This document shows positions 5,764 through 54,527 of a stretch of 64,000 bases of DNA, piece by piece (within the stretch, counting starts at the first letter, position 1; each line of letters opens with the position of its first letter). The notes beneath the pieces were generated by a model that worked only from the letters and a program-made list of their open reading frames with translations, made no database searches and was not told where the DNA came from. The stretch is from Bacteroidota bacterium (lineage in GTDB: Bacteria; Bacteroidota; Bacteroidia; NS11-12g; UBA955), in the NCBI GenBank assembly GCA_030834125.1, contig JAURFW010000002.1:289-64288 (forward strand), written 5' to 3'. Made by a program: the position numbers and the translations under genes.

Positions 5764-5781
5764 AAATTGTATCTTTACCCT

Positions 5782-8118: not shown

Positions 8119-8167
8119 AAATTGATTCAATTGTTGGGAATTAAATGCCCCAACTGAATTTTTGTAA

Positions 8168-19570: not shown

Positions 19571-19578
19571 GGAATTAA

Positions 19579-27365: not shown

Positions 27366-27372
27366 TTTTATA

Positions 27373-29617: not shown

Positions 29618-30231
29618 TGAATAATTTTATCCTTTTAGAGTTTGATCATATATCAAGATTTGATTATTCAGAATTGTCTAAATTCAGTGACGATTGGTGT
29701 GAAAGTATAAAAGAACCTAAACGAAGAATGGAAAGCCAGTTGGCGAGATTATTATTAAATAAAAGTTGTATTGAACTTTTAAATAAAAATCTGAGCCAGT
29801 GTGCATTCAAAAAAGATAAATTGGGTAAGCCGTTTCTTGAGAATTATCCGAAATACCATATTTCAATTTCTCATTGCAATGGATATGTTTGGACTGGAAT
29901 TTCAAACTCACCAATTGGAATTGATTTTGAAAAGATTGAATTAGAATGTATAGAGGATTTACGAATAGCATTTGATAATGAAGACTGGCAGAATATTTCC
30001 CATAATCCGGAATTGATTTTTGAATATTTTTCTCTCAAAGAATCATATTTAAAAATGTTGGGTATTGGGTTTACAAAAGAGCCATCGGAGATAAGAAATT
30101 ATACACTAAAAGATAACATTTATTCAGAACTATTTGATACCTCAAATCAGAAATTTATTTTTACTTTGATAATAAAAAATTTTAAACCTAGCCATTATAT
30201 TAAATCCAACCAAATATTCTCAAAATTATAA
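29617..30231 (+). CDS. Sfp-type 4'-phosphopantetheinyl transferase.
   Basis: 204 aa. 'LGKPFL', 'ISISHCNGYV', 'GIDFEKIE' and 'FSLKESYLKMLGIGF' match PPTase motifs P1a/P2/P3. Confidence 0.8.
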   Translation: MNNFILLEFDHISRFDYSELSKFSDDWCESIKEPKRRMESQLARLLLNKSCIELLNKNLSQCAFKKDKLGKPFLENYPKYHISISHCNGYVWTGISNSPIGIDFEKIELECIEDLRIAFDNEDWQNISHNPELIFEYFSLKESYLKMLGIGFTKEPSEIRNYTLKDNIYSELFDTSNQKFIFTLIIKNFKPSHYIKSNQIFSKL

Positions 30232-30232
30232 A

Positions 30233-30997
30233 ATGAACAATAATAACCTTAAGGATTATTTAGAGAGAGGATTTGTATTTTTTGATAATTATACCGTTAC
30301 CATAACGGAAGATCTTGAAAACAAAATTACGGGATCAGCACATTCGGTTAAGTTTTATGAATCTGATGGTGAAACTATCAGATCCTTTTATGGGTTTCAT
30401 AGGGATACCCATATCAAGGAATGGATTCAGCTACAAAAGCCGATACAAGAAATTTGTAAAAAAATATATCCAAATGAAGATATTTATATTCATCAGTCAA
30501 AAGTAAATATCAAAAACACCATAGAAAGTTCAGTTTGGCCATTTCATCGTGATTTCCCATTTTGGAATGTTTTTGATGGTATTGCTGATAATAGGCTGTT
30601 GAATGTAGTAATATTTATGGATGATGTAAATGAAGATAATGGCGCATTAAGTTTTATACCAGGGAGCCAAAAGTACTTTCTTGAAAGGGAAAAAGAATTT
30701 GCAAAACAGGGCTACAGTTTGGAAGGTTCGGCTTCGAATAATTTAAATTTTGATTTTAATCAATATGAAGTTGAAGCATTCAAACTTAAATTTGGAAATG
30801 AACTAATAACTGGTCCTAAAGGGTCGATTGTAATATTTAACCCAAATTTAGTGCACGGATCATCTTTTTCGACTCAAGATTTTAGCAGAAAATTAATGTT
30901 ACTCACTATTAATGTTTGTACCAATAAGCCTAAAATTCCAGCTATCCGCCCCGATTATTTATGTTCAACAGACTTTTCCCCGATAAAGTGGAATTAA
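30233..30997 (+). CDS. PhyH-family Fe(II)/2-oxoglutarate-dependent dioxygenase, a candidate amino-acid hydroxylase.
   Basis: 254 aa. 'VWPFHRDF' (H-x-D) and a distal 'NPNLVHGSS' His. Its stop is 6 nt before the NRPS-1 ATG. Confidence 0.65.
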   Translation: MNNNNLKDYLERGFVFFDNYTVTITEDLENKITGSAHSVKFYESDGETIRSFYGFHRDTHIKEWIQLQKPIQEICKKIYPNEDIYIHQSKVNIKNTIESSVWPFHRDFPFWNVFDGIADNRLLNVVIFMDDVNEDNGALSFIPGSQKYFLEREKEFAKQGYSLEGSASNNLNFDFNQYEVEAFKLKFGNELITGPKGSIVIFNPNLVHGSSFSTQDFSRKLMLLTINVCTNKPKIPAIRPDYLCSTDFSPIKWN

Positions 30998-31002
30998 AAG
31001 AA

Positions 31003-34000
31003 ATGAATCATAAAGAATATTGGTTAGCCTATTTGGAAATGATTCCAAAATTTTCATATGAATCCTTTTACACTGAAGAGCAAATAACAGAAAATATAGT
31101 GCTACCTGAAAGTTTGTCTAGATTATCTAAAATGAATAGTCACAACGCACAACTTTTACTAGCCGTAAGTATTTCAAAGTTGTTTAGTTTAAAAAATATT
31201 TTTGAAAACGTTTCTATAGAATTAGTTAACCAATATATTCCACTTCCAGATTGCAACGAACAAATTCTGAGTGATGCAGCCAAGAATGTTTTGACTAATT
31301 TTCGGCAACATTTAAATAATTTACCGGCAATTGAATTTCAGCCTTCATTAATAAACTTCTATCAACACGAGGCTAACAGGAAATCATTAATTAATTTCAA
31401 AATTGATGAATCCTTGAGCAAGTTGCAAGTGTTGATGCCGTCCAATTTTAAAACATTCGTAAATCTACTTTTCAAAGAAACATTCGATTTACTCGAAACC
31501 ATAGGAACCAATAAAGGAATTTCATTTTCTGATACACTCTTAAAGGAGTTTAATGGGATAAGCAGAAATAAGCTGCCAGAAATAGTTGAAAAATGCTGGC
31601 CAGAGATTCATGATTTCCCTTTAAAGCCCGAATTAAGTTACCTTGAAAATGGCGGAGATTCTATACAGGCAATTCGGTTACTTTCAAGGTTGCAGCGTGA
31701 TGGTTATTTTTCTGATCTCAGTAGCCTTATTAATTCAAAAAGTATTTTGGATTGGAAAATTGAATATCGAGGCGTTAGTAATTTATTACCAGATTCTAAT
31801 TTACGGACTTATCCACTTTCTGCAACTCAGAAATTAATTTGGGAAGATTGGTCTTCCTTAAACCAATTACATATTTACCATGAGCAGTTTCTTTTCAAAT
31901 TAGACAAATGTCCAACTTATGAAGTTATAAAATCTGCTTATGAATATATTTGGCAAAAATATCCGCAATTAAGGGTCAATATAGATTATGAAGAAAATGG
32001 CTTTATACAAATTGTCCAGGAGTCTAAAGCCGATTTTAGGATTATAAAAGGGAAGGGGATAGATGAGATTTTACAAGCTGATTTATCTGAACCTTTTGGA
32101 AAAATCCTGATGCGCTGTACTTTCATTGATTTAGATAAAGATAAATACATACTTTGGTCTCATCATCATGTTCTTCTTGATGGTTGGAGTGTAGGTAAAC
32201 TAATTGCTGAATTTATTGAAATTATTGAACGGGGAATACCAAAATTGACTATTTCACCAAACTATCAGCAGATTTTGCTAGGTAAAGAGAATTTAATAGC
32301 TAATGAAAATGAAACTGCATATTGGGAGAGTTTTTTCAATAATAGATCAGCTCTGGCACTTCCAAAAAAATCAGCAGAAAAGGGTGAATATGAAACGTTT
32401 ATTGCAAAATTAGATAATATTGAAAATTTCCGAAGTGCTTCGGAAAAGGCAGCGGTTAGTCTTCAGAGCTATCTGCTGACACATTTTTTTCTGACAGTTT
32501 TTAGTATTAATGGAAAAAATAATACTTATTTACATAGTATATCTTCCGGAAGAAGTTTAATTCCGGAATACGCAGAAGAAGCTGTTGGCCTATTTATTAG
32601 AAACATAATTCCAGGTTTTGAAATCAAAGAAGACGATACTATACTGAGTCTTCTCCAAAATTTTCACAAAGATTTTATCAAGACGGTTGAAATGGAATTT
32701 ACTTCACCGGAATTAATAAATTCTTATCAAGAAGAGCGTCCCGATGTGCTTTTTGTTTTTGAAAACTACCCGTATCAAACTATTAAAGGCGATAAAATAA
32801 GCGGTGAATTAATTGATAATCATGAATTAACAGGCTATCCATTTAGTTTTCTAATTATGCCTCAGGATGATTGTCTAAATATAAAAATCATTTATGATAG
32901 TGGAAGATTTAGTTCAGAGTTTATTTCTACTTTCTACCATAAGTTTAGCTCACTGCTATTACATTTTAAAGCCAATCTGAACGATAAAGTTTATCAATTG
33001 GAAGATAGCCTCAATAAACTATCCATAATCAATGATAAGTTTCCATTTTGGTATGATGAGATTATTCGTAAAACGTCAAAATCAAAAAATCAAATTAGCA
33101 GTTCTAGGAGCGAAGAAAAAATTGCTTTCAATAAGATAGAAAATCTTGCTGCCAGTTTCAGTAATTATTTTAAAGATTTGCAAAAGGGCAATCGAATTGC
33201 TGTTTTTGGCGAAAAGAATGAAAAATTACCAGCAATAGCATATTCTATTATGCGAAATGGTTTTGTATATCTGCCCATTAATATTTCATGGCCTTTAGAC
33301 AGAATTAGTAAAACACTTAAACTTGCTGAATGCAGTCATATAATTATCACGGATGATTCTCCTTCATTGGAATTGCCTGATTACTTGACCATTCATAAAG
33401 ATGTTTTTAGTATAGAATCTGATATTTCAATAAATTATCGACCTGAATTGGATGATGAAGCATATTTGCTTTTTACATCAGGATCAAGTGGCATGCCAAA
33501 GGGGGTAAGCCTTAGCCATAAAAATCTATCCTCATTTCTAGATGCTTGTACTGAATATTGTGACCCAAACAATTATGAATTAATTTTTAGTTTTACTAAT
33601 ATCGGTTTTGACCTCTCAATTTTTGAAAATTTATATGGATTGTATTCCGATAAGTCAATTCATGTCATTCATAAACCAATTCATTTGTGGGAAGAATTAC
33701 AAAAGTTTAATGGAATATTGCTAAATACAGTACCTTCTGTAATTATTAATCTGAAAAGGGAAGAAATAAAAAATATTTCTGTTTTACATACAGCAGGAGA
33801 ACCTTTTAGAAATTCTGCCTGGGAACTTTTAAAAGAAGGAAATCCAAACATAAAAATTTTCAATTGGTATGGACCTACTGAAACAACTACTTATTCCACG
33901 TGTGTAGATTTAAGTGATGCATACTCAGCTTCTATCGGTAAAGCTCTTAAACACGAACTTATATTTATAACCGATGCATTGGGACTTAAACAAATGGATG

Positions 34001-35937
34001 GATTGGATGGAGAAATAATTATTGGTGGAGAAGGTGTTGGAAGATATTTAATTAATGAAAATGAGAAATTCCTTTGCAAATCGGAACTCAATTTTTACCG
34101 AACTGGAGATAGAGCCTTAAGAAAAAATGGACAAATTTATCTGAGGGGTAGAGAAGATCGCCAAGTGAAAAGATTAGGCCAAAGATTCGAACTTTCAGAA
34201 ATTGAACTTTGGATTATAGCCAATTATAATCAAATAAAAAGAGTGTATTACTACAAAAGTAAAGATGAACAATTTTTACTTTTTCTTGAGACAGAAGTGC
34301 TAAAAGAAGCAGAAATAAAAACAGCACTTAGTAATCAATTTCCGGATTATATGTTACCAGAATTGATTAAAATAATGCCATCATTCCCTGAAAATGATAA
34401 TGGGAAAATGGATATCGGACAAATGTTGAAATCAATTGACAAGATTGATAATGCGGCCAAATCAGACTCTAAATTGCTTGCCTCTTTGAAGCAAAAAGAT
34501 GGTCTTTTCAAATCATTGAATGGTAACTTAAGTTTTACATCACAAGGAGGGGATTCAATCTTAGGGCTTAGAATCATAAGCAAATTGAAAAAAATGGGCT
34601 ATCGAATTGAGATTTCAGACCTACTAAATGCTGAAAGTCTTAATGAATGTTTCAGTAAACTTAGAATTGAAGAAATAACTACATCTTCTATTACAGAAGA
34701 TTTAGTTTTATTAAGCCCTATTCAGAAGTGGTTCAAGGAAGATTACAAAGGAAATCTAAATCATTTTAATCAAAGTGTTTTGCTTGAGCTTTTCATCCCA
34801 TTAAGTACCGAAGAGATTTTTACAAAGGTTAAAATTTGTTTCAATTCAATAGATCTTTTAAAAAGAAGTTTTAATAGTAAATGGGAAGAAGCCCAATCTC
34901 CAATTTTTCAAATTATTAATATTCAAGATCATACAGATATAACTGCTCATTGTGAAATACTTCAAAGATCTTTCAATTTGATCGATGGCCCCGTTGCTGC
35001 AATTGCCATTTTTAAAAGTCCTAATAGTGTTTTCCTTTTTATTAGTATACATCATTTTTACTGTGATGGAATCACTTGGAGGATTTTGATGGATCGTTTA
35101 CAAGATTCACTTACAGGAATCGAAAGTAGTCAAACTGATATTCAGGTTTTCGGAAGGGTCCAAGCAGCATGTAGAGATTTTGGTCAATTAGATGAAAAAG
35201 ACAATTATTATCCCAATATAATTTCCAATCCATTTCAGAATTTACAAGTTTGTTCGTACAAACAGTCAGAATTTAGAAACATTGAGTGGAACGCAAATCG
35301 AAGCAATCATTTTTTAAAAAATTGGAATAAAGAACATACTGTAAATGAAAAATTTGTGAGCTTTTTTCTACATAGTTGGTTAAGAGCTAAACAACCAAAA
35401 ACCGCAATTTTTTTAGAAACTCACGGTAGACAATATTCGGGAATTCCGGAAATTACAGAATCTATTGGTTGGTTTACCCAGTTTTATATGTTGAGCGAAA
35501 ATGACTATCCTTCACAAAAAAATGAAATCAATCATTACGTTAAGCAAAGTTTCTCGAAACTACCAAATAATGGTCTAGGCTATATGGGCATGAGTAATTG
35601 GCAAACCCCCCCATTCCCTATTTTACTAAATTTCCTAGGCAGTTTTGATGAAAACTGGAATTCTATGGCAAGACCGGTAAATTTTGATGAAAGTAATCAA
35701 GTCGATCCCGATAATCCTATGTTAGCTTTTGTTGAAATAAATGGAATTATACTCGAAGGAAAAATAAGATGGATGTTTAGAACTCATCCTGAAGTCCCAA
35801 TTGATTTATTTGTTGCAGAATGGGAAAAATCAGCTATTGATTTACTTTCTAGCGATTCAGATATATACAGTAACGAGAATATTGATAAGGATGACATAGA
35901 CAAAATATCTCAAATACTCAATATTCCTGATTTATGA
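31003..35937 (+). CDS. NRPS protein 1. An unassigned ~200-aa N-terminal region, then T - C - A - T - E.
   Basis: The ORF track has 30961..35937; the likely start is the ATG at 31003. T0 'LENGGDSIQAIRL' (~31651). C 'HHHVLLDGWS' (32161-32190). A: A2-like 'RNGFVYLPIN', A3 'LFTSGSSGMPKGV' (~33469), A4 'FDLS', A5 'NWYGPTETTTYST', A7 'YRTGDRA', A8 'GREDRQVKRLGQRFELSEIE', A10 'NGKMD'. T1 'QGGDSILGLRI' (~34543). E domain 'PIQKWF', 'HHFYCDG' (35050-35070), 'ETHGRQ' (~35416). Acidic C-terminal tail. Confidence 0.9.
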   Translation: MNHKEYWLAYLEMIPKFSYESFYTEEQITENIVLPESLSRLSKMNSHNAQLLLAVSISKLFSLKNIFENVSIELVNQYIPLPDCNEQILSDAAKNVLTNFRQHLNNLPAIEFQPSLINFYQHEANRKSLINFKIDESLSKLQVLMPSNFKTFVNLLFKETFDLLETIGTNKGISFSDTLLKEFNGISRNKLPEIVEKCWPEIHDFPLKPELSYLENGGDSIQAIRLLSRLQRDGYFSDLSSLINSKSILDWKIEYRGVSNLLPDSNLRTYPLSATQKLIWEDWSSLNQLHIYHEQFLFKLDKCPTYEVIKSAYEYIWQKYPQLRVNIDYEENGFIQIVQESKADFRIIKGKGIDEILQADLSEPFGKILMRCTFIDLDKDKYILWSHHHVLLDGWSVGKLIAEFIEIIERGIPKLTISPNYQQILLGKENLIANENETAYWESFFNNRSALALPKKSAEKGEYETFIAKLDNIENFRSASEKAAVSLQSYLLTHFFLTVFSINGKNNTYLHSISSGRSLIPEYAEEAVGLFIRNIIPGFEIKEDDTILSLLQNFHKDFIKTVEMEFTSPELINSYQEERPDVLFVFENYPYQTIKGDKISGELIDNHELTGYPFSFLIMPQDDCLNIKIIYDSGRFSSEFISTFYHKFSSLLLHFKANLNDKVYQLEDSLNKLSIINDKFPFWYDEIIRKTSKSKNQISSSRSEEKIAFNKIENLAASFSNYFKDLQKGNRIAVFGEKNEKLPAIAYSIMRNGFVYLPINISWPLDRISKTLKLAECSHIIITDDSPSLELPDYLTIHKDVFSIESDISINYRPELDDEAYLLFTSGSSGMPKGVSLSHKNLSSFLDACTEYCDPNNYELIFSFTNIGFDLSIFENLYGLYSDKSIHVIHKPIHLWEELQKFNGILLNTVPSVIINLKREEIKNISVLHTAGEPFRNSAWELLKEGNPNIKIFNWYGPTETTTYSTCVDLSDAYSASIGKALKHELIFITDALGLKQMDGLDGEIIIGGEGVGRYLINENEKFLCKSELNFYRTGDRALRKNGQIYLRGREDRQVKRLGQRFELSEIELWIIANYNQIKRVYYYKSKDEQFLLFLETEVLKEAEIKTALSNQFPDYMLPELIKIMPSFPENDNGKMDIGQMLKSIDKIDNAAKSDSKLLASLKQKDGLFKSLNGNLSFTSQGGDSILGLRIISKLKKMGYRIEISDLLNAESLNECFSKLRIEEITTSSITEDLVLLSPIQKWFKEDYKGNLNHFNQSVLLELFIPLSTEEIFTKVKICFNSIDLLKRSFNSKWEEAQSPIFQIINIQDHTDITAHCEILQRSFNLIDGPVAAIAIFKSPNSVFLFISIHHFYCDGITWRILMDRLQDSLTGIESSQTDIQVFGRVQAACRDFGQLDEKDNYYPNIISNPFQNLQVCSYKQSEFRNIEWNANRSNHFLKNWNKEHTVNEKFVSFFLHSWLRAKQPKTAIFLETHGRQYSGIPEITESIGWFTQFYMLSENDYPSQKNEINHYVKQSFSKLPNNGLGYMGMSNWQTPPFPILLNFLGSFDENWNSMARPVNFDESNQVDPDNPMLAFVEINGIILEGKIRWMFRTHPEVPIDLFVAEWEKSAIDLLSSDSDIYSNENIDKDDIDKISQILNIPDL

Positions 35938-38900
35938 GAAAAGAGGATATTTTATCAATAGTTCCGTTATTACCCGCTCAGCAATATATGCTTGCTGCAT
36001 CTGTAAAAGATGGGCAATCGACCTATATTCAACAATTGGTTTTCAAGGTAAGGAATTATGACGGTAAAGCTATTGAAGAATCAATAAACAAGTTAGTTCA
36101 AAATTATGAGTGTTTTCGTTCTTTAATTCTTTTTGAAGGATTAAAACAGGCTGTTTGGGTGAGTATTAAAAATATCACTCCCAAATTCATATATCATCAA
36201 ATTAATGAAGCGGAATTGGATGAATTCTGTAAAAACAGACTTGAGCAAGGCTTTAAGTTGGATAAGGAAGTAGCTATGAAATTAGATTGGATTGAGAGCC
36301 AATCAGATAATTACCTTCTCATCACATATCATCATCTTCTATTTGACGGTTGGGGGCGTCAAAAAATTTTGAGTGAGGTGCTTTTTGCGCTTAAATTTCC
36401 CAGAGCCTCCATTAAGCCAAAACTGAATATTAATTGGTATGAAGCATGGAAACAACTCAATCATAATGAGGCTTTAAATGCATATAATACCTACCTAACA
36501 AGGTTTGATACTTTTGCAAGTCTTACACAACTAGGCCAAGGTCAAAATAAAAACTGCACACATTCCATCTCAATTGAGGAGATTCAAATTTCGAAAGCCG
36601 CAAGAAATCTAAATTTAACTCAGGCGGAATATGTTCTTTTTTCATGGGCTTGCTTTATTTCAAAATGGACAAATACAAGCAAAGTGCAATTGGGACAAAT
36701 TAAACAAAATGGCCTGATTGATAGTTGCAGAGATGGTTTTGGTCTGGGTATTCAAACCCTCCCATTTCAATTGGATATTGACTTTAATGTTACTATTGCA
36801 GAAACATTAAAAGTATTCAAACAAAGAGAGCGCAAACTAACAGATTACAGCTTTGTTGATACTACCAATGAAATTTTCCAACAGATTACTTACGATTTCA
36901 TTATTGCCTTTGAAAATTATCCAATAGAAAATTCATTGGTTGATTTTGAACATGATTTTATATTAATAAAAAATTATGATTTCTCTGAATTTCCACTCAG
37001 TTTGGCTATTAGTCCAAATAATGGAAAATTAATTTTTGACTGGCATTATAATCAAAAACAATATTGTCAAAGACAGATTGAAACGGTTGCTAAACATTTT
37101 ATTGAGTGCCTTGAAAAATTGCCGGTGAATATTGATTCTAGACTATGCAATTTGCGATTTTGGGAACCGAAACCTATACCACAATTCAAAATTAAAACAT
37201 CTCAAGAAGATTTTTTTTCAAGGATTGAGAAACATATTATTCAGGGGGGAAGAGAAGAACTCTACATTCAGCTCAAGAAATATTTTCAAAAATATAATAT
37301 AAATAGAGTTTGGATTATTGGTGACAAGCATAGCAATTCAGATTTACTCATATGTGCAGCTTGGTATTGCAAAATTGAAGTTTTAAGTCTTAATGAAAAA
37401 GAGTCCGCAGCATTCGTAATGCACCTTCATGATGAGTATTCCGCTGATCTGATTTTTACAAATGTCTCACCTTCTAGTTTTCCAAAAGCCATTTCAATGG
37501 ATTGTTTGGATAACCTACCAGAAAATCCGAATTCGAAATTATCAAAAAAATCGGATGTGGCACTTTCTATTTGTACTTCAGGATCAACAGGTAGGCCAAA
37601 GGTAGTTCAACTGAATTTAGAAAATTTAATTGCTTTTTTTGAAGCATGGGAAAAGAAATTACCTTGGAAATCAAACGAAGTTTTTGCTTCAATCGCGCAC
37701 CCTGCCTTTGATATTGGAGTAGCCGAACTTATTTTCCCACTATGGAAAGGTTTTCAAACAAAACTTATTTCAAAGGAGACGTTGTCAGATCCTATATTGC
37801 TAAATAGAGAATTACATGATGTAACAGCCTTTCATATGGTTCCTTCTTTGCTTGAGAACTGGATAGAAAATTCTCCGGCAGATAATAAAAATAGAATTGT
37901 GATGACAGGGGGGGATAAAGTGCCTTCGAATTTGCAATCTAAACTATCAAAGAAATTTCCAAACGTTCGACTATTTCAATTTTACGGGCCATCGGAATGT
38001 TCAGTTTTATCTTCTGGATTTGAAAATACAGGAGATTTTGAAAATCACTTTTCTCCTTTAGGTACAAATTTTGATCACTGCGAACTTTTTGTTTTTTCAA
38101 AAGATATTAATCAGTCTGCCCCTTTTCAAGAGGGAGAAATAATTGTTTGTGGTCCAGCTGTTGGTTTGGGTTATGCTTTCGATAATGAGGATAATAAGTT
38201 TTTCTATTACAAAGGGCAAAAGGCCTACAGGACAGGAGATTTCGGATTTTTTGATGAAAATGGGAACTTGTTTTTCAGAGGCAGAAAAGATAATCAAATA
38301 AAAATCAATGGTCAGCGAATTGAACTTTCCAGGATTGAAACTGCTTTATCAGAATGGTCGTCAATTGAACATTGGGTTACTGTCAGTGATGGATTTAAAC
38401 TTTTTGCATTTGCCAAATCTGAAAAATCAAAGATTGAGAAACGTAGACAGGATTTACAAAATTGGTTGCCTTTTTATGCAATGCCGCATTTAATCCACTA
38501 TGTGAATGAATTTCCACTCAATAAGAATGGCAAATTAGACCGGCAACAATTAATTGAGTTAGGTAAAAAATTAGTTAATGTAAATATAGATTCAGCAATA
38601 GATGCTGATATTGATTTGTTATTCAAGGAACTTTTTCCAAATAGAGTTATAAATACAGCACTTTCTTGGTATGCTAATGGATTAAACTCGATAGATGCTC
38701 TTAAATTTTCTGGTTTGCTTAAGTCAAAACTGAAATTTACTATTGAAATAAATCAAATCCTTAGTATTGAAAGACTCACATCATTGAATTCATTAAAAAT
38801 TAAAGTTAATGATGAACCAGAAGAAATCACTATCAAGCCAGGTCAGGAGCTTTATTCAACAGCTGCAAGGATTGTATTTCTATCGGAATCAGATGATCAA

Positions 38901-41900
38901 TTTTTTAAAAGTTACTGGATTAACAGCGGTATAGTTTTACCTAAAGACATTGATACCAATGAGTTAAAATCATGGATATTAAATCAGACCAATTTGCACT
39001 TAGCAGTCATTGCCAATGACAATAAATACTTTTGGAAAGGAGTTGAACCTAAATTATTTGAGATTAAAGTTAGGAGTAGAAGCGAGTTTTCAGAGTTTGT
39101 TGAAAATAAATTTTTAAGCACAGATTCTTCGCTTTTTATGAGTTTTATTGGTTTTTCTGAAGGAGAAAATTATTTAGCATTTAAGGTGAATCATGCACTC
39201 CTGGATGGTTTAGGGTTGGAATTGTTGTGGAAGAAGTTGCAAAATGATCTTAAAAGTGGTTCAAGAAATAAAATAAATCTGATTGCTCCAAAAGAGGTTG
39301 AAATAGAACAAGATTTTTGGGAAAATTATCTCCAAGATGTTGAAATTAAAACGTTGCCTTTCTCGAGACAAAACTCCTCAAAAAAGAGAGTAAAAAGATT
39401 AAATATCAAACTCAATATCCAAGAAAAGGAAAGGTTACAAAAAATTTGCTCAGATTACGATTGTAGTTTATTTGAAGCAGGATTGATAATGTATTGTAAA
39501 CTATGGAAGTATTTTTATGCTTCTAAACCTCATACTATTGGAATTCCTGTAAATTTAGGCAGTTATGGCGAAGAAAATAATATTGCTGGAATGTCAGTAA
39601 ATATTCTTCCATTTCGCACGGATAACGAAAATTCCAAGGAAATACTTCAAAACTGGCGGTTCATATTTAAAAAAAGATTTACACCATTTTCGGATATAGC
39701 ACAATTGGATAAAAACCAGAAAAATGGCCTTCCTTTTTTCAATAGCACCTATCTCTACCATGCTCAAAAAGATATAGATAATACTTTTGAAAGTATAGAT
39801 TTTGAAAGAGCACAGACGGATTATGATCTTTCATTAGATTTCATTGAAACAAAAAATGATTTGATTTTTTCTTGGGAATTTAGGTCGGATTTTCTTTCAG
39901 AAACAGCTATCAAAAAAATTCATAGATGCTTATTTAATGATGTTGACATTAAAAATGATAGTAAATATTCAGTATTTACACCAATAAAATATCAATGGGA
40001 GCAAATAGTTGAGTTGTATTCTTCAAAAACAGCGTTAATATTTAATGATAAAAATTATAGTTATGCCGAACTTGCTAAGTTGGTTTTAGACCATCAAAAA
40101 AATTATCAAAATATTACTGATGGAATTGAGATTTTGATACTAGATCGTGACGTTTATTCAATTTCAAAACTACTTTTTCATTTAATTGAAGGAATTCCAT
40201 TTGTTCCTGTTGATGCAGAAACTAAACCAGATAGGATAGAGCAAATATTAATGTTGGCGAAAGATATAAATTTAAAAGATCCAACAAATAAAAATTTACA
40301 ATATGTTATAGCCACTTCTGGAACAACGGGTATACCGAAATTGGTGGGTGTGAGTAAAAGCGGTTATGGATCTGCCGTAGGTGCCTGGAAAGAGGATTAT
40401 AATATTAATTCAAACGATTGCTGCATGCAAGCCGCATCCTTTTCATTTGATGTTTCATTGGGTGATATCGGAAGAACATTTTTCAACGGTGCTACGATGT
40501 TACTATTAAATGCAAATGAACGGAAAGATCCGATGACAATGCTTCAAAAAATTTCGAATTTTTCGGTCACTGTTTTTGAAACTACACCACTAATCGCGCG
40601 TTGGTGGATATCTGAAAATATTAAACTTAAAACTTATTCAAGTCTTAGACTTCTTATTGTTGGATCGGATAGTTGGAAAATGGAAGAAATTAGAACTTTG
40701 TGCAAATCAAAAAATAAAGAACAGAAAGTTATAAATTCCTACGGGCTATCAGAAACAAGTATAGATAATAGTTTTTTCGACCCTGATTCAGATGATCAAA
40801 CATTCTATGCTAACGAGATGCTTGTTCCAATTGGAAAGGCAATGAGTCATTGCGAAATTGACATTGTGAATTCAGAAAAGCAAAGTTTAAAGAACGGAAT
40901 AGAAGGATTTATCAATATTTCAGGTCCGGCTGTGGGCTATGGTTATTTTCTTGATGGACATTGGACAAATTCGAATCCAGAACAATGGTTGACCGCAGAT
41001 CGTGGAATTATTGATGAGTGGGGGATTTGTCATTTTAAAGGAAGATCTGACCGTCAAGTTAAGGTAAGAGGGCAACGAGTTGAATTAGAAGAAATAGAAA
41101 ATATACTTTCGATAAATTCCAAAGGAACAATTTGGCATGTTGTTGATTTTGAACATGAATTTTCAATAGAGATGGCGGCATTTTACAACGTTGAATTATC
41201 AACTATTGAAATTCAAGAATTAAAAAAGTCAATAATCAGTAAATTTCCTAGTTATTTTTTACCAACACTTTTTATTCAAATTGAAAAAATTCCTTTAAAT
41301 ATTAATGGAAAAACAGATTTGAATGCTTTAAAGAAAATCGCTCAATCAAAATTTGAACAAAATGCTGAATTAAATGAAAATGAAGAAATAATTGAGAGGA
41401 TTTTGAGTTTATACAAGCAATGTTTTAACGAATCCGCAATTGAAGATCAAAACTTTTTTAGTAATGGTAAAAATAGTTTTGATGCAATGCATTTTGTAAG
41501 GACCTGGAATAAGATTTCTAATGAAAAAATGGCGGTACATCAGTTATTTGCGGCGCAAAATTTCAGAAATCTGGCTCAAATGTTAACTTTATCAGTAAGT
41601 ATTGATATTGAAAAAAGCTCAACAAAAAAGATTTCCAAGGCTCAAGAGGCAATTTGGTTTGAAATAAAACAGGGAAAAACAACACTTTATAATCTACCAC
41701 ATATAATAGAAATTCCAAATAAGTATAATATCAAAAAGTTTAAAGCGGCTTTTGAAAATACACTGAAAGTTTGTTCATCACTATTCGTGAGGTTTGAAGA
41801 AAATGATCTTGGAGACGTTTTTGAATTACCCTTAGATTGCGCAAATTATGTACTTCCCACAATCACAATTGAAAAATTGGAAGAGTTTAAATCGCAATCT

Positions 41901-43685
41901 TTTACAACAGAAATCAATTTGACGGAAGGTCCATCCTTTGAAGCGGCATTATTAATTAGTACAAATCAATATTATTTATATTTCAATCCTCATCACATAG
42001 TATATGATGGAGGTTCCGATGCTGTTTTATTGAAAATATTTGATAATTTTTATAACGATAGATCTGAAATCCTAGAAAATTATACAGAAGTAATAAGTAG
42101 TAATACCGTTGATTGGGAATCCTACTTCAACTTAGTTTCAAAACCTGAAATTTGTTTTCAAAAAACCGATAGTTCAATACAACCTGGTTTATTTATCCCC
42201 TGTAGCAAGGAAGACTCTTCAAAGATTTATTCTATCGCAGAAAATTATCAATGTACTACGACAATTATCATTTCAAACCTATTAACTAAGGCATTGAATG
42301 AATCAGGCATTAATATAAATTGGATTTCCCTTGCAGTAGATCATCGGACCTATGATTGTGTAGGTATGCATATGCGCGCGCATCCTTTTCCAGGTTATAA
42401 TTCTGAAGAGGAATTAGATTTAAATATAGCCAAACAAAAATGGGCATTAAGCAAACTTTTTTCTGCAGCCGATCAAAATTTAATCTATCCGGATTCAATT
42501 TCTGTAGAGGCTTATCATCAGGTAGGTTTGGTTATTCAACATCCATTTTATCTTGAAAATTTAAATTATAAAGAAAGAATTGACCTTACTCGACCTAGGC
42601 TTCCATTAAGTTTGTATGTGGAGCAGATAAATGATCAATTCTTTTTCCGTTGGGAATTTGATAATAGTCAGATTTCAATGGATAAAATTAAGGAAATACA
42701 TAGTAATTTTTTCATTCTAGCTGATGAATTGGAATTTAGGGATAAAAAAATCTTACAGTTTAATCCTGTTACTGCAGCAGGTAAAAAATCGATAATTCCT
42801 ATTGACATTTTACCAGAACTAGAACAAATTTGGGTAAAATATACAGGAAGAGAAAATATCGAAACACTTCATTTTTTTGAAGCTGGTGCTAATAGTCTAA
42901 AGGCATTATTAATGCTAAAAGAAATAGAAAGGAAATTGCAAATACGCATTTCTACAGTAGATTTTTTCAAACAACCAACACTTACGTTTCTTTCAAAAGC
43001 AGTCGAAAAATTTGAATACAATGAGCTCATTTTCAAATTACAAGATGGTAATGACAGTAAAGAATTATGGCTTTTACCTCCAATTATGGGATTTGGTTAT
43101 ATTTTCAATAGTTTGAAATTACCAGATAATTTGAAAACTTTTGCCTTTAGTTACCCTGCTGCAATGGGAATAAATAAAGCTGGAAATATCGAGGAATTAG
43201 CTAGAATGCTTTTCAAAGAGCGCATTTCGGCATCAGAATTACCGGAAGAAATTACATTGCTAGGGTATTCAATGGGTGCCTTGACTGCATTTGAGTTGGC
43301 AAAATTACTCGAGGAACATAATGTAAAAGTGAAGAAATTGATAGTGCTGGACAAAACTGCACAACCTGAGTTTGGTCGAATTCTTGAACAGGTAGAGTTA
43401 AGAAGTGAACTTATGGAAATAGCAAAACAAATCGCCATAGATTCAACTGAATATAAAAGAATTATTGAATATCTTTCATCCCATGAATTGATGATCGAAG
43501 CTTATCAGCAAGTTGGGTTTTTAAATTGTCCAATTGAGGTATTCTATTGTGAAAACGGATTTCAAAAATTAGACTTTAATAAATGGAAGAGATTCACTTC
43601 TTCCGAATTACAACTCCAATCTCTAAAAAAATGTAATCATTATCAAATTCCAGATATTTGGAATGAATTGGATCTGAATTATTGA
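35934..43685 (+). CDS. NRPS protein 2: C - A - T - C - A - T - C - T - TE, carrying the terminal thioesterase.
   Basis: 2583 aa. C1 'YHHLLFDGWG' (~36330). A1 'ICTSGSTGRPKVV' (~37575), 'FYGPSECSV', 'YRTGDFG', 'GRKDNQIKINGQRIELSRIE', 'NKNGKLD'. T1 'NGLNSIDALKF' (~38679). C2 'NHALLDGLG' (~39189). A2 'IATSGTTGIPKLV' (~40308), 'NSYGLSETSID', 'GRSDRQVKVRGQRVELEEIE', 'NINGKTD'. T2 'NGKNSFDAMHF' (~41470). C3 'HHIVYDGGS' (~41991). T3 'EAGANSLKAL' (~42885). TE 'LLGYSMGALTAFELA' with GxSxG (~43263). Overlaps gene 1 by 4 nt. Confidence 0.9.
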   Translation: MRKEDILSIVPLLPAQQYMLAASVKDGQSTYIQQLVFKVRNYDGKAIEESINKLVQNYECFRSLILFEGLKQAVWVSIKNITPKFIYHQINEAELDEFCKNRLEQGFKLDKEVAMKLDWIESQSDNYLLITYHHLLFDGWGRQKILSEVLFALKFPRASIKPKLNINWYEAWKQLNHNEALNAYNTYLTRFDTFASLTQLGQGQNKNCTHSISIEEIQISKAARNLNLTQAEYVLFSWACFISKWTNTSKVQLGQIKQNGLIDSCRDGFGLGIQTLPFQLDIDFNVTIAETLKVFKQRERKLTDYSFVDTTNEIFQQITYDFIIAFENYPIENSLVDFEHDFILIKNYDFSEFPLSLAISPNNGKLIFDWHYNQKQYCQRQIETVAKHFIECLEKLPVNIDSRLCNLRFWEPKPIPQFKIKTSQEDFFSRIEKHIIQGGREELYIQLKKYFQKYNINRVWIIGDKHSNSDLLICAAWYCKIEVLSLNEKESAAFVMHLHDEYSADLIFTNVSPSSFPKAISMDCLDNLPENPNSKLSKKSDVALSICTSGSTGRPKVVQLNLENLIAFFEAWEKKLPWKSNEVFASIAHPAFDIGVAELIFPLWKGFQTKLISKETLSDPILLNRELHDVTAFHMVPSLLENWIENSPADNKNRIVMTGGDKVPSNLQSKLSKKFPNVRLFQFYGPSECSVLSSGFENTGDFENHFSPLGTNFDHCELFVFSKDINQSAPFQEGEIIVCGPAVGLGYAFDNEDNKFFYYKGQKAYRTGDFGFFDENGNLFFRGRKDNQIKINGQRIELSRIETALSEWSSIEHWVTVSDGFKLFAFAKSEKSKIEKRRQDLQNWLPFYAMPHLIHYVNEFPLNKNGKLDRQQLIELGKKLVNVNIDSAIDADIDLLFKELFPNRVINTALSWYANGLNSIDALKFSGLLKSKLKFTIEINQILSIERLTSLNSLKIKVNDEPEEITIKPGQELYSTAARIVFLSESDDQFFKSYWINSGIVLPKDIDTNELKSWILNQTNLHLAVIANDNKYFWKGVEPKLFEIKVRSRSEFSEFVENKFLSTDSSLFMSFIGFSEGENYLAFKVNHALLDGLGLELLWKKLQNDLKSGSRNKINLIAPKEVEIEQDFWENYLQDVEIKTLPFSRQNSSKKRVKRLNIKLNIQEKERLQKICSDYDCSLFEAGLIMYCKLWKYFYASKPHTIGIPVNLGSYGEENNIAGMSVNILPFRTDNENSKEILQNWRFIFKKRFTPFSDIAQLDKNQKNGLPFFNSTYLYHAQKDIDNTFESIDFERAQTDYDLSLDFIETKNDLIFSWEFRSDFLSETAIKKIHRCLFNDVDIKNDSKYSVFTPIKYQWEQIVELYSSKTALIFNDKNYSYAELAKLVLDHQKNYQNITDGIEILILDRDVYSISKLLFHLIEGIPFVPVDAETKPDRIEQILMLAKDINLKDPTNKNLQYVIATSGTTGIPKLVGVSKSGYGSAVGAWKEDYNINSNDCCMQAASFSFDVSLGDIGRTFFNGATMLLLNANERKDPMTMLQKISNFSVTVFETTPLIARWWISENIKLKTYSSLRLLIVGSDSWKMEEIRTLCKSKNKEQKVINSYGLSETSIDNSFFDPDSDDQTFYANEMLVPIGKAMSHCEIDIVNSEKQSLKNGIEGFINISGPAVGYGYFLDGHWTNSNPEQWLTADRGIIDEWGICHFKGRSDRQVKVRGQRVELEEIENILSINSKGTIWHVVDFEHEFSIEMAAFYNVELSTIEIQELKKSIISKFPSYFLPTLFIQIEKIPLNINGKTDLNALKKIAQSKFEQNAELNENEEIIERILSLYKQCFNESAIEDQNFFSNGKNSFDAMHFVRTWNKISNEKMAVHQLFAAQNFRNLAQMLTLSVSIDIEKSSTKKISKAQEAIWFEIKQGKTTLYNLPHIIEIPNKYNIKKFKAAFENTLKVCSSLFVRFEENDLGDVFELPLDCANYVLPTITIEKLEEFKSQSFTTEINLTEGPSFEAALLISTNQYYLYFNPHHIVYDGGSDAVLLKIFDNFYNDRSEILENYTEVISSNTVDWESYFNLVSKPEICFQKTDSSIQPGLFIPCSKEDSSKIYSIAENYQCTTTIIISNLLTKALNESGININWISLAVDHRTYDCVGMHMRAHPFPGYNSEEELDLNIAKQKWALSKLFSAADQNLIYPDSISVEAYHQVGLVIQHPFYLENLNYKERIDLTRPRLPLSLYVEQINDQFFFRWEFDNSQISMDKIKEIHSNFFILADELEFRDKKILQFNPVTAAGKKSIIPIDILPELEQIWVKYTGRENIETLHFFEAGANSLKALLMLKEIERKLQIRISTVDFFKQPTLTFLSKAVEKFEYNELIFKLQDGNDSKELWLLPPIMGFGYIFNSLKLPDNLKTFAFSYPAAMGINKAGNIEELARMLFKERISASELPEEITLLGYSMGALTAFELAKLLEEHNVKVKKLIVLDKTAQPEFGRILEQVELRSELMEIAKQIAIDSTEYKRIIEYLSSHELMIEAYQQVGFLNCPIEVFYCENGFQKLDFNKWKRFTSSELQLQSLKKCNHYQIPDIWNELDLNY

Positions 43686-43692
43686 TAAAAAT

Positions 43693-46416
43693 ATGATTTC
43701 ATTAAATCAATATCAACTTCTATTTTTCAATCGCGAAATAAATTTTGGAAATTCAGCATCTAATGTGCTAAAAGGTTATGCTGAAATAAAATCTGCAAAT
43801 TTTGAAAGGCTGTATGATTCCGTAAATACAGTATTGAAAAAATCTGAATGGACCTATCTCAGCATAGATAAGAATAGCAGTAGTTGGATAATAAAAGATT
43901 CATGGAATGGAAGATTAGAGAAGTCAATATTTTTACCCGAAATAGCTATTGATAAACATTTATGGACAGTACAACTTGTTAAGGATGAAGATTCTGATAA
44001 AATTAGATTACATCTATTCCTGCATCACTGTTTAGCCGATGCACATTCTTTCAATCTTTTTTGGGATGCTGTTTTTAACCAATATCAAAATGGAATCTTT
44101 GAAATAGCACCACTTTTTCCGGAATTGAGCTACAGTAAAGGTCAATTAAATCAAAATAAAAAAAATCTACGGACAGACTTAGGAATTGGGAGCATCCGAA
44201 GAATTTCATTGAAATTCAATCAAAGAATAAAAAGGCATTTGATTACTCTTGCTAACCAAAACGGAACTAGCTTAATGTCGATGTTGCTTGAATATATTGA
44301 GAATGAACTTGAAAATTGTGAAGGTGATCTTGAAATCCCATTGAAATTAGGAATAGCACTTCGAAATCGAAGAAATGTTAATCAAAAAAATGCATTTCCT
44401 ACTGTAGTAAATTTTTTGCCATTACAGGAGGATAGCAACCTTAGTATGCAACAAAAGGTAATGCAACTGTTTCGCTATCAGGACTATCCCTTGATGAATT
44501 ACCTGAATGACAATAAACTACCATTAGCATTTAATGTGCTTTTTTCTTATCAAAAAGAATATTATTTAGTGGAAGATGGATTTGAATCAAAATTTACATT
44601 TGAAGCATCAACTAGTGATGACAATATACTAGGCATTCATCTCCTTGAATACGATGATGACAGTTTCATGCTTCATCTTGATTATAGAATTGATATTGCT
44701 TCGGAATCCTATTGGAAGTCAGTGCTTCGGAAAGTAAGTCGAAAAATTACTGCGGACTATTTAAAAATTCCTGATAATCGAGAAGTCAAGAATATTGCGA
44801 TACTTTATCCCAAAACAACTCAGTTAAATGATTTTTGGTATTATTTTGATCAAGCGCCTTCAGAAAAAATAGCATTAATATGTAATGATTATTGTTTGAC
44901 ATTTGCTGAAATTAGAAAACGCATTTCAGGGATTAAATTCAATCCTGAATTGAAACTTCATAGATTAATGCCTGAACGAACAATCGAAAATATTATTGAA
45001 TTATTGGCAGCATGGAAAAATGGAATAACGGTTACGTACCAACAATTAGATGATTTCAAAGAACCAGTAGGATCTAATGCTTCATTCGTTTTACAAGAAA
45101 CTACCGCCTATATTGCTCAAAGTAGTGGTACAACCGGTGAACAGAAAACCATTCAGATTTCATTCGATGGACTTTGTAGTCTTATTCCTGATTGGAAATT
45201 GAACTTTAAAACCGGAGATAGTTATCATCTTTGTTTGGCCGATCAAAGATTTGATGTGTTTTTTGGTGATTTACTTCGCAGTATTATTAGTGGAGAAACT
45301 ATGGTATTTGCAACTGATGATGAACGGCTGAATGCATTGAAAATTGATAGACTGTTAAGGGAATATGGTGTAAGTCATTTTGAATCTACTCCTTCTTTTT
45401 TAAGTTATTTGTTGCCAGAAATAACAGATCTTTCAGGAATCAAAGTAATAATATGTGGTTCTGAACCAATTCAAAAAGGTTTTTATGAGTCGCTTCAACA
45501 AAGCAGATTTAAAGATATTGATTTTTTTAACAGTTATGGTTTAACTGAATGCAGCATAGATACTGCAATTGCCAGGTTAAAAAGAGATAAAGAAGGTCGT
45601 TTCCCATCTGGATTTCCAGTTGGCGATCAGATAATTAGTATTAGAGATACTAAATTAGGGCTTAAACCCAAAGGAATTTGGGGAGAAATTTACATTGAAG
45701 GAAGCTGTGTTGGAATCCAATCTTGCAAAAATGATTCTTATAGAATATTCAAGACTGGAGATTGTGGAATGATAACAGAAGATGGATTAATTGTTAACGG
45801 AAGAATTAATGAAGATTTTATCAAAATAAATGGAAGAAGAGTACCTTCAGCCATGATAGAACAATTGACATCATCAATTAATGGAGTAAAGAATTGTCTT
45901 TGTATGGAAGTAAGGAACATGGCTGTACTATTTGTATTTGGTAATTCAGATGTTCAAATTATTCGAACAAGTCTCTCTAAAGTTCTCAGTCGTTATCAAC
46001 AACCAGATGATTATTTTTTCTGCTCAGAATGGCCTATCAACCAAAATGGAAAATCCGACAGAAAAAAACTCCTTGAGTGGTACCAACAGAAAAATATTAA
46101 TAAACAATCATGGCAACCGGGAACACATCCTTCAGATAAAATACTTTTTGAATGCCTTAAATCAAGAGAAAAATTATTTGGCGCTGCAAACGATTCTCTT
46201 ATTTCTTTTGGTTGGAATAGTATTGAACTATTATCATTGGCAAATGAATTGAATATGAAAGGGGTTTTTGTCCCTTTAGCTTCATTTATTCAAAATCCAA
46301 GTATTTCATTTATTCTCGAATCTGCAACTCAGAAACAAAAAATTGAAAATAGAGAAAACCCCGAAGCCGATGATTTCGACATTGATGATATATTGTCTAT
46401 ATTGAATAATAATTGA
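43693..46416 (+). CDS. NRPS protein 3: an N-terminally short C domain (candidate starter C), then A - T, and an acidic C-terminal tail.
   Basis: 907 aa. C 'LHLFLHHCLADAHS' (~44023), which sits only ~112 aa from Met1. A 'AQSSGTTGEQKT' (~45121), 'FDVF', 'NSYGLTECSIDT', 'FKTGDCG', 'NGRINEDFIKINGRRV', 'NQNGKSD'. T 'FGWNSIELLSLANEL' (Ser codon at 46219-46221). Tail '...ENPEADDFDIDDILSILNNN'. Confidence 0.85.
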   Translation: MISLNQYQLLFFNREINFGNSASNVLKGYAEIKSANFERLYDSVNTVLKKSEWTYLSIDKNSSSWIIKDSWNGRLEKSIFLPEIAIDKHLWTVQLVKDEDSDKIRLHLFLHHCLADAHSFNLFWDAVFNQYQNGIFEIAPLFPELSYSKGQLNQNKKNLRTDLGIGSIRRISLKFNQRIKRHLITLANQNGTSLMSMLLEYIENELENCEGDLEIPLKLGIALRNRRNVNQKNAFPTVVNFLPLQEDSNLSMQQKVMQLFRYQDYPLMNYLNDNKLPLAFNVLFSYQKEYYLVEDGFESKFTFEASTSDDNILGIHLLEYDDDSFMLHLDYRIDIASESYWKSVLRKVSRKITADYLKIPDNREVKNIAILYPKTTQLNDFWYYFDQAPSEKIALICNDYCLTFAEIRKRISGIKFNPELKLHRLMPERTIENIIELLAAWKNGITVTYQQLDDFKEPVGSNASFVLQETTAYIAQSSGTTGEQKTIQISFDGLCSLIPDWKLNFKTGDSYHLCLADQRFDVFFGDLLRSIISGETMVFATDDERLNALKIDRLLREYGVSHFESTPSFLSYLLPEITDLSGIKVIICGSEPIQKGFYESLQQSRFKDIDFFNSYGLTECSIDTAIARLKRDKEGRFPSGFPVGDQIISIRDTKLGLKPKGIWGEIYIEGSCVGIQSCKNDSYRIFKTGDCGMITEDGLIVNGRINEDFIKINGRRVPSAMIEQLTSSINGVKNCLCMEVRNMAVLFVFGNSDVQIIRTSLSKVLSRYQQPDDYFFCSEWPINQNGKSDRKKLLEWYQQKNINKQSWQPGTHPSDKILFECLKSREKLFGAANDSLISFGWNSIELLSLANELNMKGVFVPLASFIQNPSISFILESATQKQKIENRENPEADDFDIDDILSILNNN

Positions 46417-46432: not shown

Positions 46433-46822
46433 ATGCATGAAATACAATTACCTCAAACAAGTTTCTACTACTTAAGAAATCATCCTTTAAAAGGAATGGG
46501 TGTATATTCATTGAGAGATTTCAAGATAGGTGAAATGATTTCAAAGAACTACGTTGCAATAATTGATTGGGAAATGGATGAAAATTCATCTTTTCAACAA
46601 CACTATCCAATGTATTGGACAGAGGAATTTGCTTGTATTGCATTTGGGATAATAAACCTTGTTAATCACAGCTCAAAGCCAAATTGTAGAATTAAAATAG
46701 ATTATGATTCTCAAACTATAGCTCTTTTAAGTAAAAAAGTAATTAATGCAGAAGAAGAATTAACAATTGATTATGGTGATGAACATTTTCCATTTAAATG
46801 TGGTAAAGTAAAAATTTATTAA
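46433..46822 (+). CDS. Small SET-domain protein, a putative protein/peptide lysine N-methyltransferase fold.
   Basis: 129 aa. 'GMGVYSLRDFKIGEMI' resembles the SET N-region G-x-G...I-x-x-G-E. 'LVNHSSKPNCRI' matches the NHSC-x-PN core with Cys to Ser. 'EEELTIDYGDEHF' matches the ELxxDY motif. It sits between NRPS genes 3 and 4 on the same strand. Confidence 0.6.
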   Translation: MHEIQLPQTSFYYLRNHPLKGMGVYSLRDFKIGEMISKNYVAIIDWEMDENSSFQQHYPMYWTEEFACIAFGIINLVNHSSKPNCRIKIDYDSQTIALLSKKVINAEEELTIDYGDEHFPFKCGKVKIY

Positions 46823-54526: not shown

Positions 54527-54527
54527 C

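Follow-up and report, generated by a model that had tools for sequence, protein, structure and literature searches.

Two conserved modules without adenylation domains in a nonribosomal peptide synthetase cluster of Bacteroidota

Eight carriers and six adenylation domains

A 64,000-nucleotide stretch of a Bacteroidota bacterium (assembly GCA_030834125.1, contig JAURFW010000002.1, positions 289 to 64,288; referred to below as the window) carries four nonribosomal peptide synthetase (NRPS) genes, N1 to N4, in which two modules contain a carrier (T) domain but no adenylation (A) domain. The four genes span 30961-53681, all on the + strand, and lie in a 29-kb co-directional block whose GC content is 30-33%, compared with 35-39% in the flanks (cluster taken as 26000-55300); the window overall spans 30-39%. 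Domain maps were built with Pfam on whole proteins and on tiles, with phmmer using internal seeds, and with motif scans. The proteins also contain condensation (C), epimerization (E), and thioesterase (TE) domains, and N1 opens with a conserved domain that we call X. The N3 gene starts 7 bp past the end of N2, the TE-ending gene.

30961-35937, + strand: N1, X(1-215)-T0-C-A-T-E
35934-43685, + strand: N2, C-A-T-C-A-T-C3-T3-TE
43693-46416, + strand: N3, a single module, C* (HHCLADA)-A (ornithine [Orn], code DVGEIGSID)-T
46896-53681, + strand: N4, C-A (Thr)-T-C-A-T-C

In total the four proteins hold 8 T, 6 A, 8 C, 1 E, and 1 TE domains. An earlier note on this DNA had counted eight T domains against six A domains and described T0 of N1 and T3 of N2 as lacking a cognate A domain; both statements stand, and the motif strings it quoted all lie where it placed them (GGDSI, PHHIVYDGGS, and FEAGANSLKA were located). 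Pfam locates the six A domains at 33073-34470 (N1), 37218-38597 and 40002-41375 (N2), 44734-46110 (N3), and 48063-49475 and 51036-52418 (N4). The low-threshold rescan that the note had suggested was run with a custom hidden Markov model (HMM) made from the six A domains, using --max and E<=100 on all stop-to-stop pieces in six frames of the whole window; it recovers exactly the six known domains, and the best other match scores 3 bits (noise). Neither Pfam tiles nor this six-frame HMM reports an A domain, degenerate or frameshifted, before T0 (30961-31605) or between C3 and T3 (41571-42833), and thus neither interval hides one. The C3-T3 interval is occupied by a C domain of ~400 residues, and an A domain of ~500 residues would not fit beside it; the starts of the HHIVYDG and GANSL motifs are 298 residues apart. 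There is no seventh or stand-alone A domain in the window by the same HMM, no match in it to two MbtH-signature regular expressions, and no stand-alone ligase, either here or in the examined portions of related loci that flank the NRPS genes.

31606-31764, + strand: T0, orphan carrier; GGDSI at 31651-31665, Ser234 at 31660-31662
34519-34647, + strand: N1 T1, GGDSI
38649-38807, + strand: N2 T1, GLNS
41430-41570, + strand: N2 T2, GKNS
42819-42986, + strand: T3, orphan carrier; GANSL, with FEAGANSLKA at 42876-42905 and Ser2321 at 42894-42896
43065-43682, + strand: TE, GYSMG

Eight stretches have PP-binding as their top Pfam match, and the G-x-x-S serine is present in all eight, including the active serines of both orphans (Ser234 and Ser2321), as the earlier note had seen. 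Half of them fall under the Pfam cut-off (T0, 17.9 bits; N2-T1, 16.0; N2-T2, 19.6; N3-T, 19.0) because the whole synthetase is very divergent. The assignment of T0 is supported by a phmmer match to N4-T1 (E 4e-8) and by similarity to an HMWP2 NRPS chain in the PDB (E 0.004), and its nearest relatives are N1-T1 and N4-T1 (40 bits each). T3 is among the strongest T domains (Pfam PP-binding, 40.8 bits) and is kept in related sequences L004, P0001, and P0002.

31804-33000, + strand: N1 C (proposed module 5), HHHVLLDGWS; Pfam Condensation, best stretch at residues 282-680
34708-35934, + strand: N1 E, motifs PIQKWF, HHFYCDG, ETHGRQ, GWFTQFY, and LNFLGSF
35958-37136, + strand: N2 C1 (proposed module 6), HHLLFDG
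38856-39938, + strand: N2 C2 (proposed module 7), NHALLDG
41601-42803, + strand: C3 (proposed A-less module 8), HHIVYDGGS, with PHHIVYDGGS at 41988-42017; Pfam Condensation, 57 bits
52656-53678, + strand: N4 terminal C, WHHIVLDAVG, followed by no T; tail IHFEDFDF; proposed C of a split module 4

The PDB matches of C3 are weak and are to the C domains of TycC and RzmA. The last C domain of N4 is divergent, with 23 bits to Pfam Condensation at its His motif and no match of its profile among PDB sequences; compared by hhalign with seven other C domains, it aligns over the N-lobe at a probability of 97.5% (E 9e-12). The first C domain of N4 (N4-C1) has its best PDB match in the Tyrocidine synthase 2 (TycB) chain, followed by GrsA and TycA chains holding E domains, and no starter C domain is found among its PDB matches. 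C* of N3 comprises ~340 residues with a conserved HHCL(A/G)DAHS and other C-domain motifs, which suggests catalysis and not docking alone. The C-terminal domain of N1 has its best PDB matches in GrsA (5isw, E 4e-20) and TycA (2xhg), in regions that we take to be their E domains, and these matches together with the E-type motifs identify it as an epimerization domain. We note that some His motifs are unusual: N2-C2 has NHALLDG (39300-39330, N2 residue ~1130), and three C domains of the N3-N4 block (N3, N4-C1, and the N4 terminal C) read HHxxxDA rather than DG, N4-C1 of the related locus L034 having DG.

33073-34470, + strand: N1 A, code DLFNHAWTY, nearest an Ala code, uncertain
37218-38597, + strand: N2 A1, code DIAHMGFVL, hydroxyphenylglycine (Hpg)-like (His278, Gly301)
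40002-41375, + strand: N2 A2, code DVGEIGSID = Orn
46896-52610, + strand: N4 modules 2-3, C-A (Thr, DFWNIGMVH)-T-C-A (DAHIVTFVV)-T

Codes were read against a GrsA reference segment, which is validated by the exact agreement of the N4-A1 code and of the A2 and N3-A codes with those published for Thr and Orn: DFWNIGMVH is assigned to Thr (PMC4169593) and DVGEIGSID to Orn (PMC3992020). The nine-residue Orn code is identical in N3-A and N2-A2, although the two domains are only 26% identical. An origin of N3 by recent duplication of module 2 of N2 was considered and rejected, given this low A-domain identity and C and T domains that are unrelated beyond the family level. The Hpg-like code of N2-A1 fits the presence of HmaS, oxidase, and aminotransferase genes upstream of N1.

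Related clusters, gene order, and domain X

Related clusters were drawn from European Nucleotide Archive, JGI, and Logan contigs, from GTDB genomes, and from JGI and TARA metagenome contigs. Metagenome-assembled genomes (MAGs) of Bacteroidota are the closest relatives, and the cluster family recurs in freshwater and marine Bacteroidota; the GTDB relatives carry the labels Saprospira, Crocinitomicaceae, and Flavobacteriales, and for several of these MAGs the isolate names point to lakes. Word-index protein searches missed long orthologues, as well as the window's own N1 and N2, and because other tools found those orthologues, the word-index hit counts understate the size of the family. A literature search found no description of this cluster, nor of any product made by it in these Bacteroidota. 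The related clusters sit in hosts of 32-51% GC, and this range, together with the low GC of the cluster, suggests horizontal spread.

Clusters with no more than ~30-60% identity to the window retain the two A-less modules together with the catalytic His and Ser residues and the A codes; the A-less arrangement itself is seen in relatives at ~23-69% identity (L004/L005, L027, L028, L034, and P0001-P0008), and on these alignments we regard the two modules as genuine and conserved, with catalytic residues intact. For T0, the core GGDSIQAIR is found in all six orthologues read (P0005-P0008, L002, and L026), which are ~23-50% identical to the window over the X region; as judged from these sequences, such conservation is far above chance expectation. 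The N2-like genes of L004 and L005 (2588 aa) have the same Pfam domain order as N2 and align to its residues 1-2582, and those of L027, L028, and L034 align over residues 4-2583. Where P0001, P0002, P0003, and L004 cover the region, they retain HH(I/L)VYDGGSD of C3 (read in L004, P0002, and P0003), G(A/G)NS of T3, and the motif of the TE. The A codes are essentially invariant in orthologues at 37-69% identity, with the exception of one sub-clade, in which the N1-like protein of L002 has an Asn/Asp-like code, DFTKIGEVG, in place of DLFNHAWTY. The N1-like proteins of this sub-clade (L002, and the first 2.2 kb of L027, L028, and L034) diverge, with 33-36% identity over the C-terminal third; that of L002 (216-6572) is ~2100 aa long and has two inserts of 200-260 aa without a Pfam match, with X-T0 and E kept.

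The order of the genes varies among clades. N3 is followed by N4 in nine of nine readable contexts (the window, L010, L011, L013, L029-L032, and L034); the L002 contig, which has 2x coverage, frameshifts, and a 5-kb run devoid of open reading frames (ORFs) past a truncated N3, was not used to argue that N4 is absent. N3 follows N2 in the window-type clade only (the window, L002, L010, L027, L028, and L034), and the N2 gene of L004 and L005 is not followed by N3. The distant clades L029-L032 have N3-N4-M28-…-AT, and L004 has N4-M28-MT-PhyH-x-AT-HmaS-FADox-PPT-PhyH-N1-N2 (AT, aminotransferase; MT, methyltransferase; FADox, flavin adenine dinucleotide [FAD]-linked oxidase; PPT, phosphopantetheinyl transferase). 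Joined, these orders read N3-N4-…-N1-N2, which is colinear with the module order proposed below from the domain sequence. L026 represents a third arrangement. Two loci have foreign insertions between N3 and N4: L013 (1640-4723) contains a gene of HTH/AlbA_2-like type and a second, 92-aa copy of the tail of N3, and L034 (12758-15461) has ORFs that, by eye from their translations, resemble a transposase fragment and a cupin/JmjC-type protein.

30961-31605, + strand: X, conserved N-terminal domain of N1, residues 1-215 (~200 aa), without an HHxxxDG motif

The earlier note had left the start of N1 as an unassigned region ahead of T0; we find instead that it is a conserved domain resembling half of a C domain, not a spacer. 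X has no Pfam match, and an exhaustive HMMER search of 1.84 billion representative proteins returned four homologues (P0005-P0008), with X N-terminal in all. The two full-length ones (P0006 and P0008; 1651 and 1656 aa) have the N1-like order X-T0-C-A-T-E, and X-T0 also opens the N1-like gene of L002 and that of L026, which runs off the end of its contig. An AlphaFold2 model of X (pLDDT 71.7, pTM 0.73) searched against the PDB with Foldseek places C domains at the head of the matches (8jbr, 7c1k, 6p1j, 6cgo, and 4jn5; prob 0.6-0.97, E ~0.02-0.1, TM 0.42-0.49), namely, those of McyA2, RzmA (starter C), Txo2, enacyloxin (C), and CDA-C1. Against a profile built from 46 C domains of this family, residues 7-192 align to columns 166-405, which correspond to the C-terminal lobe (hhalign E 1e-4, prob 56%); comparisons with smaller C-domain profiles were not significant, and a profile search of PDB sequences with X gave no matches. 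With moderate confidence, we take X to be probably a relic of a condensation domain, its C-terminal lobe standing alone and lacking the catalytic His motif. We also considered a single C domain divided between N4 as N-lobe and X as C-lobe; this is unlikely, as the N4 terminal domain keeps compact C-lobe elements of its own, and X and that domain have no mutual similarity.

The ends of the proteins are conserved as well. The motif WHHI(L/V)LD and the C-terminal tail of N4 are kept in nine sequences (the window and eight orthologues), and the tail, IHF(E/D)DFDF, is near-invariant (window 53655-53678; orthologues in L004, L006-L010, and L013) and is likely a docking motif. N1 and N3 share a different acidic end, DD(I/F)D..ILS/ISQIL, which we liken to a COM donor tail, and N2 and N4 both start with KEDI followed by the C1 motif.

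Proposed assembly order and charging of the orphan carriers

With confidence a little above even, we favor a reading in which the four synthetases form one eight-module line, N3→N4→N1→N2, with the two A-less modules charged by other A domains of the cluster. Every C domain gains both a donor and an acceptor T only if the terminal C of N4 pairs with T0, which leads to this order. N3 would be module 1, and N4 would supply modules 2 and 3 plus the C domain of module 4. Module 4 would thus be split over two proteins, with the T-less terminal C of N4 on one side and X-T0 of N1 on the other; because N4 ends in a conserved C domain without a T, T0 would be not simply a leading carrier but the carrier half of an internal split module. 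X may hold T0 against N4, with the invariant FEDFDF tail as its likely partner. The C-A-T-E of N1 would be module 5, passing the chain to the N-terminal C of N2, whose C1-A1-T1 and C2-A2-T2 would be modules 6 and 7, and C3-T3, directly ahead of TE, would be module 8.

T0 and T3 would then be charged by A domains belonging to other modules. T3 would most likely receive Orn in cis from the adjacent A2, as in other A-T-C-T runs, the alternative being the iso-specific A domain of N3 in trans. Since either of these donors is specific for Orn, this residue is the best prediction for position 8. Loading in cis is favored by the linkage of N3 to N4, by the catalytic motifs that N3 C* retains, and by the resemblance of the N3 tail to that of N1, and sharing of A2 with T3 remains the most economical reading. 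For T0, the candidate loaders are N1-A, which shares its protein, and N4-A2, which belongs to the module before it.

Modules lacking A domains are already well documented (syringomycin, ramoplanin/enduracidin, mannopeptimycin, and yersiniabactin) and constitute no new category; what is new here is the proposed split module, C on one protein and half-C-T on the next, the rare X domain, and the cluster family itself. The yersiniabactin synthetase HMWP2 is organized as ArCP-Cy-A-PCP-Cy-PCP (aryl carrier, cyclization, and peptidyl carrier domains), with one A domain and two carriers on the same protein, and its N-terminal carrier is loaded by the separate enzyme YbtE, not by the internal A. The earlier note had proposed that one A domain loads two T domains in the HMWP2 manner for both orphans. 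The arrangement suits T3, which stands in the order A2-T2-C3-T3, but not T0, which precedes C-A-T and has its proposed partner C on N4; since the N-terminal carrier of HMWP2 itself depends on YbtE, the analogy fails there. HMWP2 and the mannopeptimycin NRPS share with N2 an A-T-C-T run on one polypeptide; they differ in that the A-less module here is terminal, before TE, and that the cluster has a second A domain of the same code, and double loading is proposed here by analogy. In kutzneride biosynthesis, the A*-T protein KtzH is loaded by the stand-alone KtzN, and the residue is hydroxylated on the carrier. The likeness lies in a carrier without a working A plus an iron/2-oxoglutarate (Fe/2OG) hydroxylase, the PhyH gene here overlapping the start of N1; the difference is that there is no truncated A remnant here and no stand-alone A domain in the window.

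Both cis double loading and trans complementation are known for A-less modules; in the mannopeptimycin NRPS MppB (C-A-T-E-C-A-T-C-T-E), one A domain serves two T domains, and in syringomycin the terminal C-T-Te module of SyrE works with SyrB1 (A-T), SyrB2, and SyrC (PMC8949500). Our cluster resembles the latter in its terminal A-less C-T-TE and in having a PhyH-family Fe/2OG enzyme, but that enzyme has the HRD motif of a hydroxylase, not the HxA/G of a halogenase, and N3 is C-A-T, not A-T; among the scanned cluster ORFs of at least 150 aa, no SyrC-like alpha/beta-hydrolase shuttle was found besides the TE. In the ramoplanin and enduracidin (Ramo/End) systems, module 6 of NRPS B is C-T only and is complemented by the stand-alone NRPS D, whose ~300-aa N-terminal extension is required for trans complementation (PMC8949500; bioRxiv 10.1101/2020.05.22.111625). 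Shared features are a C-T-only module, a single-module protein with an N-terminal extension of ~300 aa, and Hpg, Orn, and Thr as building blocks. The differences are that the N-terminal part of N3 is a recognizable C domain with a conserved His motif, that N3 is linked to N4, that there are two A-less carriers here rather than one, and that the host belongs to the Bacteroidota and is not an actinomycete; the likeness is read from architecture.

Several observations weigh against a single line N3→N4→N1→N2. The colinear order of the distant clades is pieced together from two partial contig types and is not seen on one contig. L007, a Flavobacteriales MAG with a 285-kb contig, has N4 and M28 alone among housekeeping genes (4751-12390). 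The 10 kb ahead of the matched N4 end and the 10 kb following it hold none of N3, N1, N2, and the Hpg genes, so that N4 may work apart, or the cluster may be split in that genome. N4-C1 looks like a D-residue-accepting C domain, but an E domain is missing from N3 (a weak point), and the location of N3-A, with the code of A2, beside C-T-TE in the window-type clade suits trans loading equally well. Support for reading X as a C-lobe is modest, in that hhalign reaches a probability of 56% and Foldseek an E of ~0.02, while two other hhalign comparisons fell short of significance. The module order, the docking of N4 to X, and the pairing of A with T domains are what we infer from these features. The L007 pair is flanked by RuvB/QueG on one side and, on the other, by an unannotated 1722-aa ORF and then a SurA-like gene.

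An explanation that is possible, and that we hold only tentatively, is that each orphan takes its residue from the neighboring complete module of its own protein, with T0 charged by N1-A and T3 by A2, to give two duplicated residues. It differs from the favored single line only for T0 and overlaps with it for T3, where A2-T2-C3-T3 matches the C-A-T-C-T of mannopeptimycin in which one A serves both T (PMC8949500). The similarity of T0 to N1-T1, as to N4-T1, and the lack of a further free A domain in the window are consistent with it. The T0-C-A-T order tells against it, as does the dependence of the N-terminal HMWP2 carrier on a separate enzyme; the change of the N1-A code between sub-clades (DLFNHAWTY versus DFTKIGEVG), with X-T0 retained, is neutral to mildly unfavorable.

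It is rather unlikely, we think, that N3 is a Ramo/End D-type module devoted to trans complementation, its Orn-specific A domain charging T3 and possibly T0 with the help of the ~340-residue C-like N-terminal domain, while N4 starts its own chain with a starter-type C. The ~340-residue N-terminal part followed by A-T does resemble the stand-alone Ramo/End modules (PMC8949500; bioRxiv 10.1101/2020.05.22.111625), the N3-A code is that of A2, N3 lies 7 bp after the C3-T3-TE gene and follows N2 in L002, L010, L027, L028, and L034, and L007 has an N4 without an adjoining N3. However, N3 is linked to N4 in all nine readable contexts and to N2 in one clade only, being absent after N2 in L004/L005; the conserved HHCL(A/G)DAHS of C* points to catalysis, the N3 tail is of the same kind as that of N1, which would hand over to N2, and N4-C1 is unlike starter C domains. 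As to a trans-acting A domain encoded elsewhere, which the earlier note gave as its alternative to sharing, a trans candidate need not be sought elsewhere: N3, just past the TE gene, has the Orn code of A2, although its conserved link is to N4.

Improbable, in our judgment, is an arrangement of two separate lines, in which N3 and N4 make a tripeptide released by the terminal C onto a free or side-chain amine, and the N1-N2 chain begins on T0 with an acyl or aryl unit from an activating enzyme encoded outside the window. Loading in trans is typical of N-terminal carriers, and L007 has N4 and M28 alone. Terminal C domains can also release chains (PMC8949500). Nonetheless, all four genes and the same accessory genes co-occur in three diverged lineages, the ligase search described above found no stand-alone enzyme, and X and the invariant N4 tail are left unexplained. 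That one or both orphans are inactive relics that are skipped is very improbable. The T0 score under the Pfam cut-off agrees with it, but the serine and core motif are kept in all orthologues read at ~23-50% identity over X, relatives also retain the TE and the His motif of C3, the Pfam score of T3 ranks with the highest of the eight carriers, and skipping T3 would sever the TE from the chain.

A bolder extension of the single line N3→N4→N1→N2 would make X a free-standing C-lobe that forms a new inter-protein junction (C, then half-C-T) by capturing the FEDFDF tail of N4, with T0 and T3 both charged with Orn by A2 or N3-A and an Orn-rich cationic octapeptide as product; this is speculative, and we consider it unlikely. 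More generally, A-less modules break the colinearity rule used by genome-mining tools, and product predictions for this family would thus be two residues short. The family offers a compact natural case, with two A-less modules proposed to lie in one line and one of them split between proteins behind a half-C-like domain that had not been described before, and it could reveal how carriers recruit a foreign A domain, which would be useful to NRPS engineering. The cluster also flags what, from its codes and pathway genes, would be an uncharacterized peptide of Hpg, Orn, and Thr.

Accessory genes and neighboring features

26286-30997, + strand: accessory genes, syntenic in L003, L004, and L026
starting at 26286, + strand: aminotransferase
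starting at 27373, + strand: 4-hydroxyphenylpyruvate dioxygenase (4HPPD)/HmaS-like dioxygenase, Hpg-type pathway
starting at 28430, + strand: FAD-linked GlcD-like oxidase, Hpg-type pathway
starting at 29617, + strand: phosphopantetheinyl transferase (PPTase)
30233-30997, + strand: PhyH-family dioxygenase/hydroxylase, HRD motif
53681-55295, + strand: M28-family peptidase and methyltransferase, always adjoining N4

The last 37 nt of the PhyH gene lie within the beginning of N1, and the gene is directly upstream of N1 also in L003, L004, and L005. Its HRD triad identifies the product as a hydroxylase rather than an HxA/G (SyrB2-type) halogenase, and a SyrB2-like identity is ruled out by this motif. 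A second PhyH gene and a P450 gene are present in L004 and L005. The Hpg-type pathway here (27373-29617) consists of an HmaS-like dioxygenase and an FAD-linked GlcD-type oxidase; in actinomycete Hpg pathways, the oxidase step is carried out by the flavin mononucleotide-dependent Hmo.

The M28 peptidase gene (53681-54526) begins on the last base of the N4 stop codon and is beside N4 in every locus read; the enzyme may have a role in maturation or N-terminal processing. The 480-nt gap between N3 and N4 contains a 129-aa SET-domain ORF (46433-46822, + strand; Pfam E 8e-14), and because a copy that is 59% identical follows the methyltransferase gene in L006 (8376-8759), the ORF appears to be associated with the cluster. 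Its product might methylate a side-chain amine, e.g., that of Orn. Elsewhere in the window (17273-21396, - strand), and unrelated to the NRPS cluster, a PKD-repeat protein with a CHU_C type IX secretion signal adjoins a Peptidase_S74 (endosialidase chaperone) protein.

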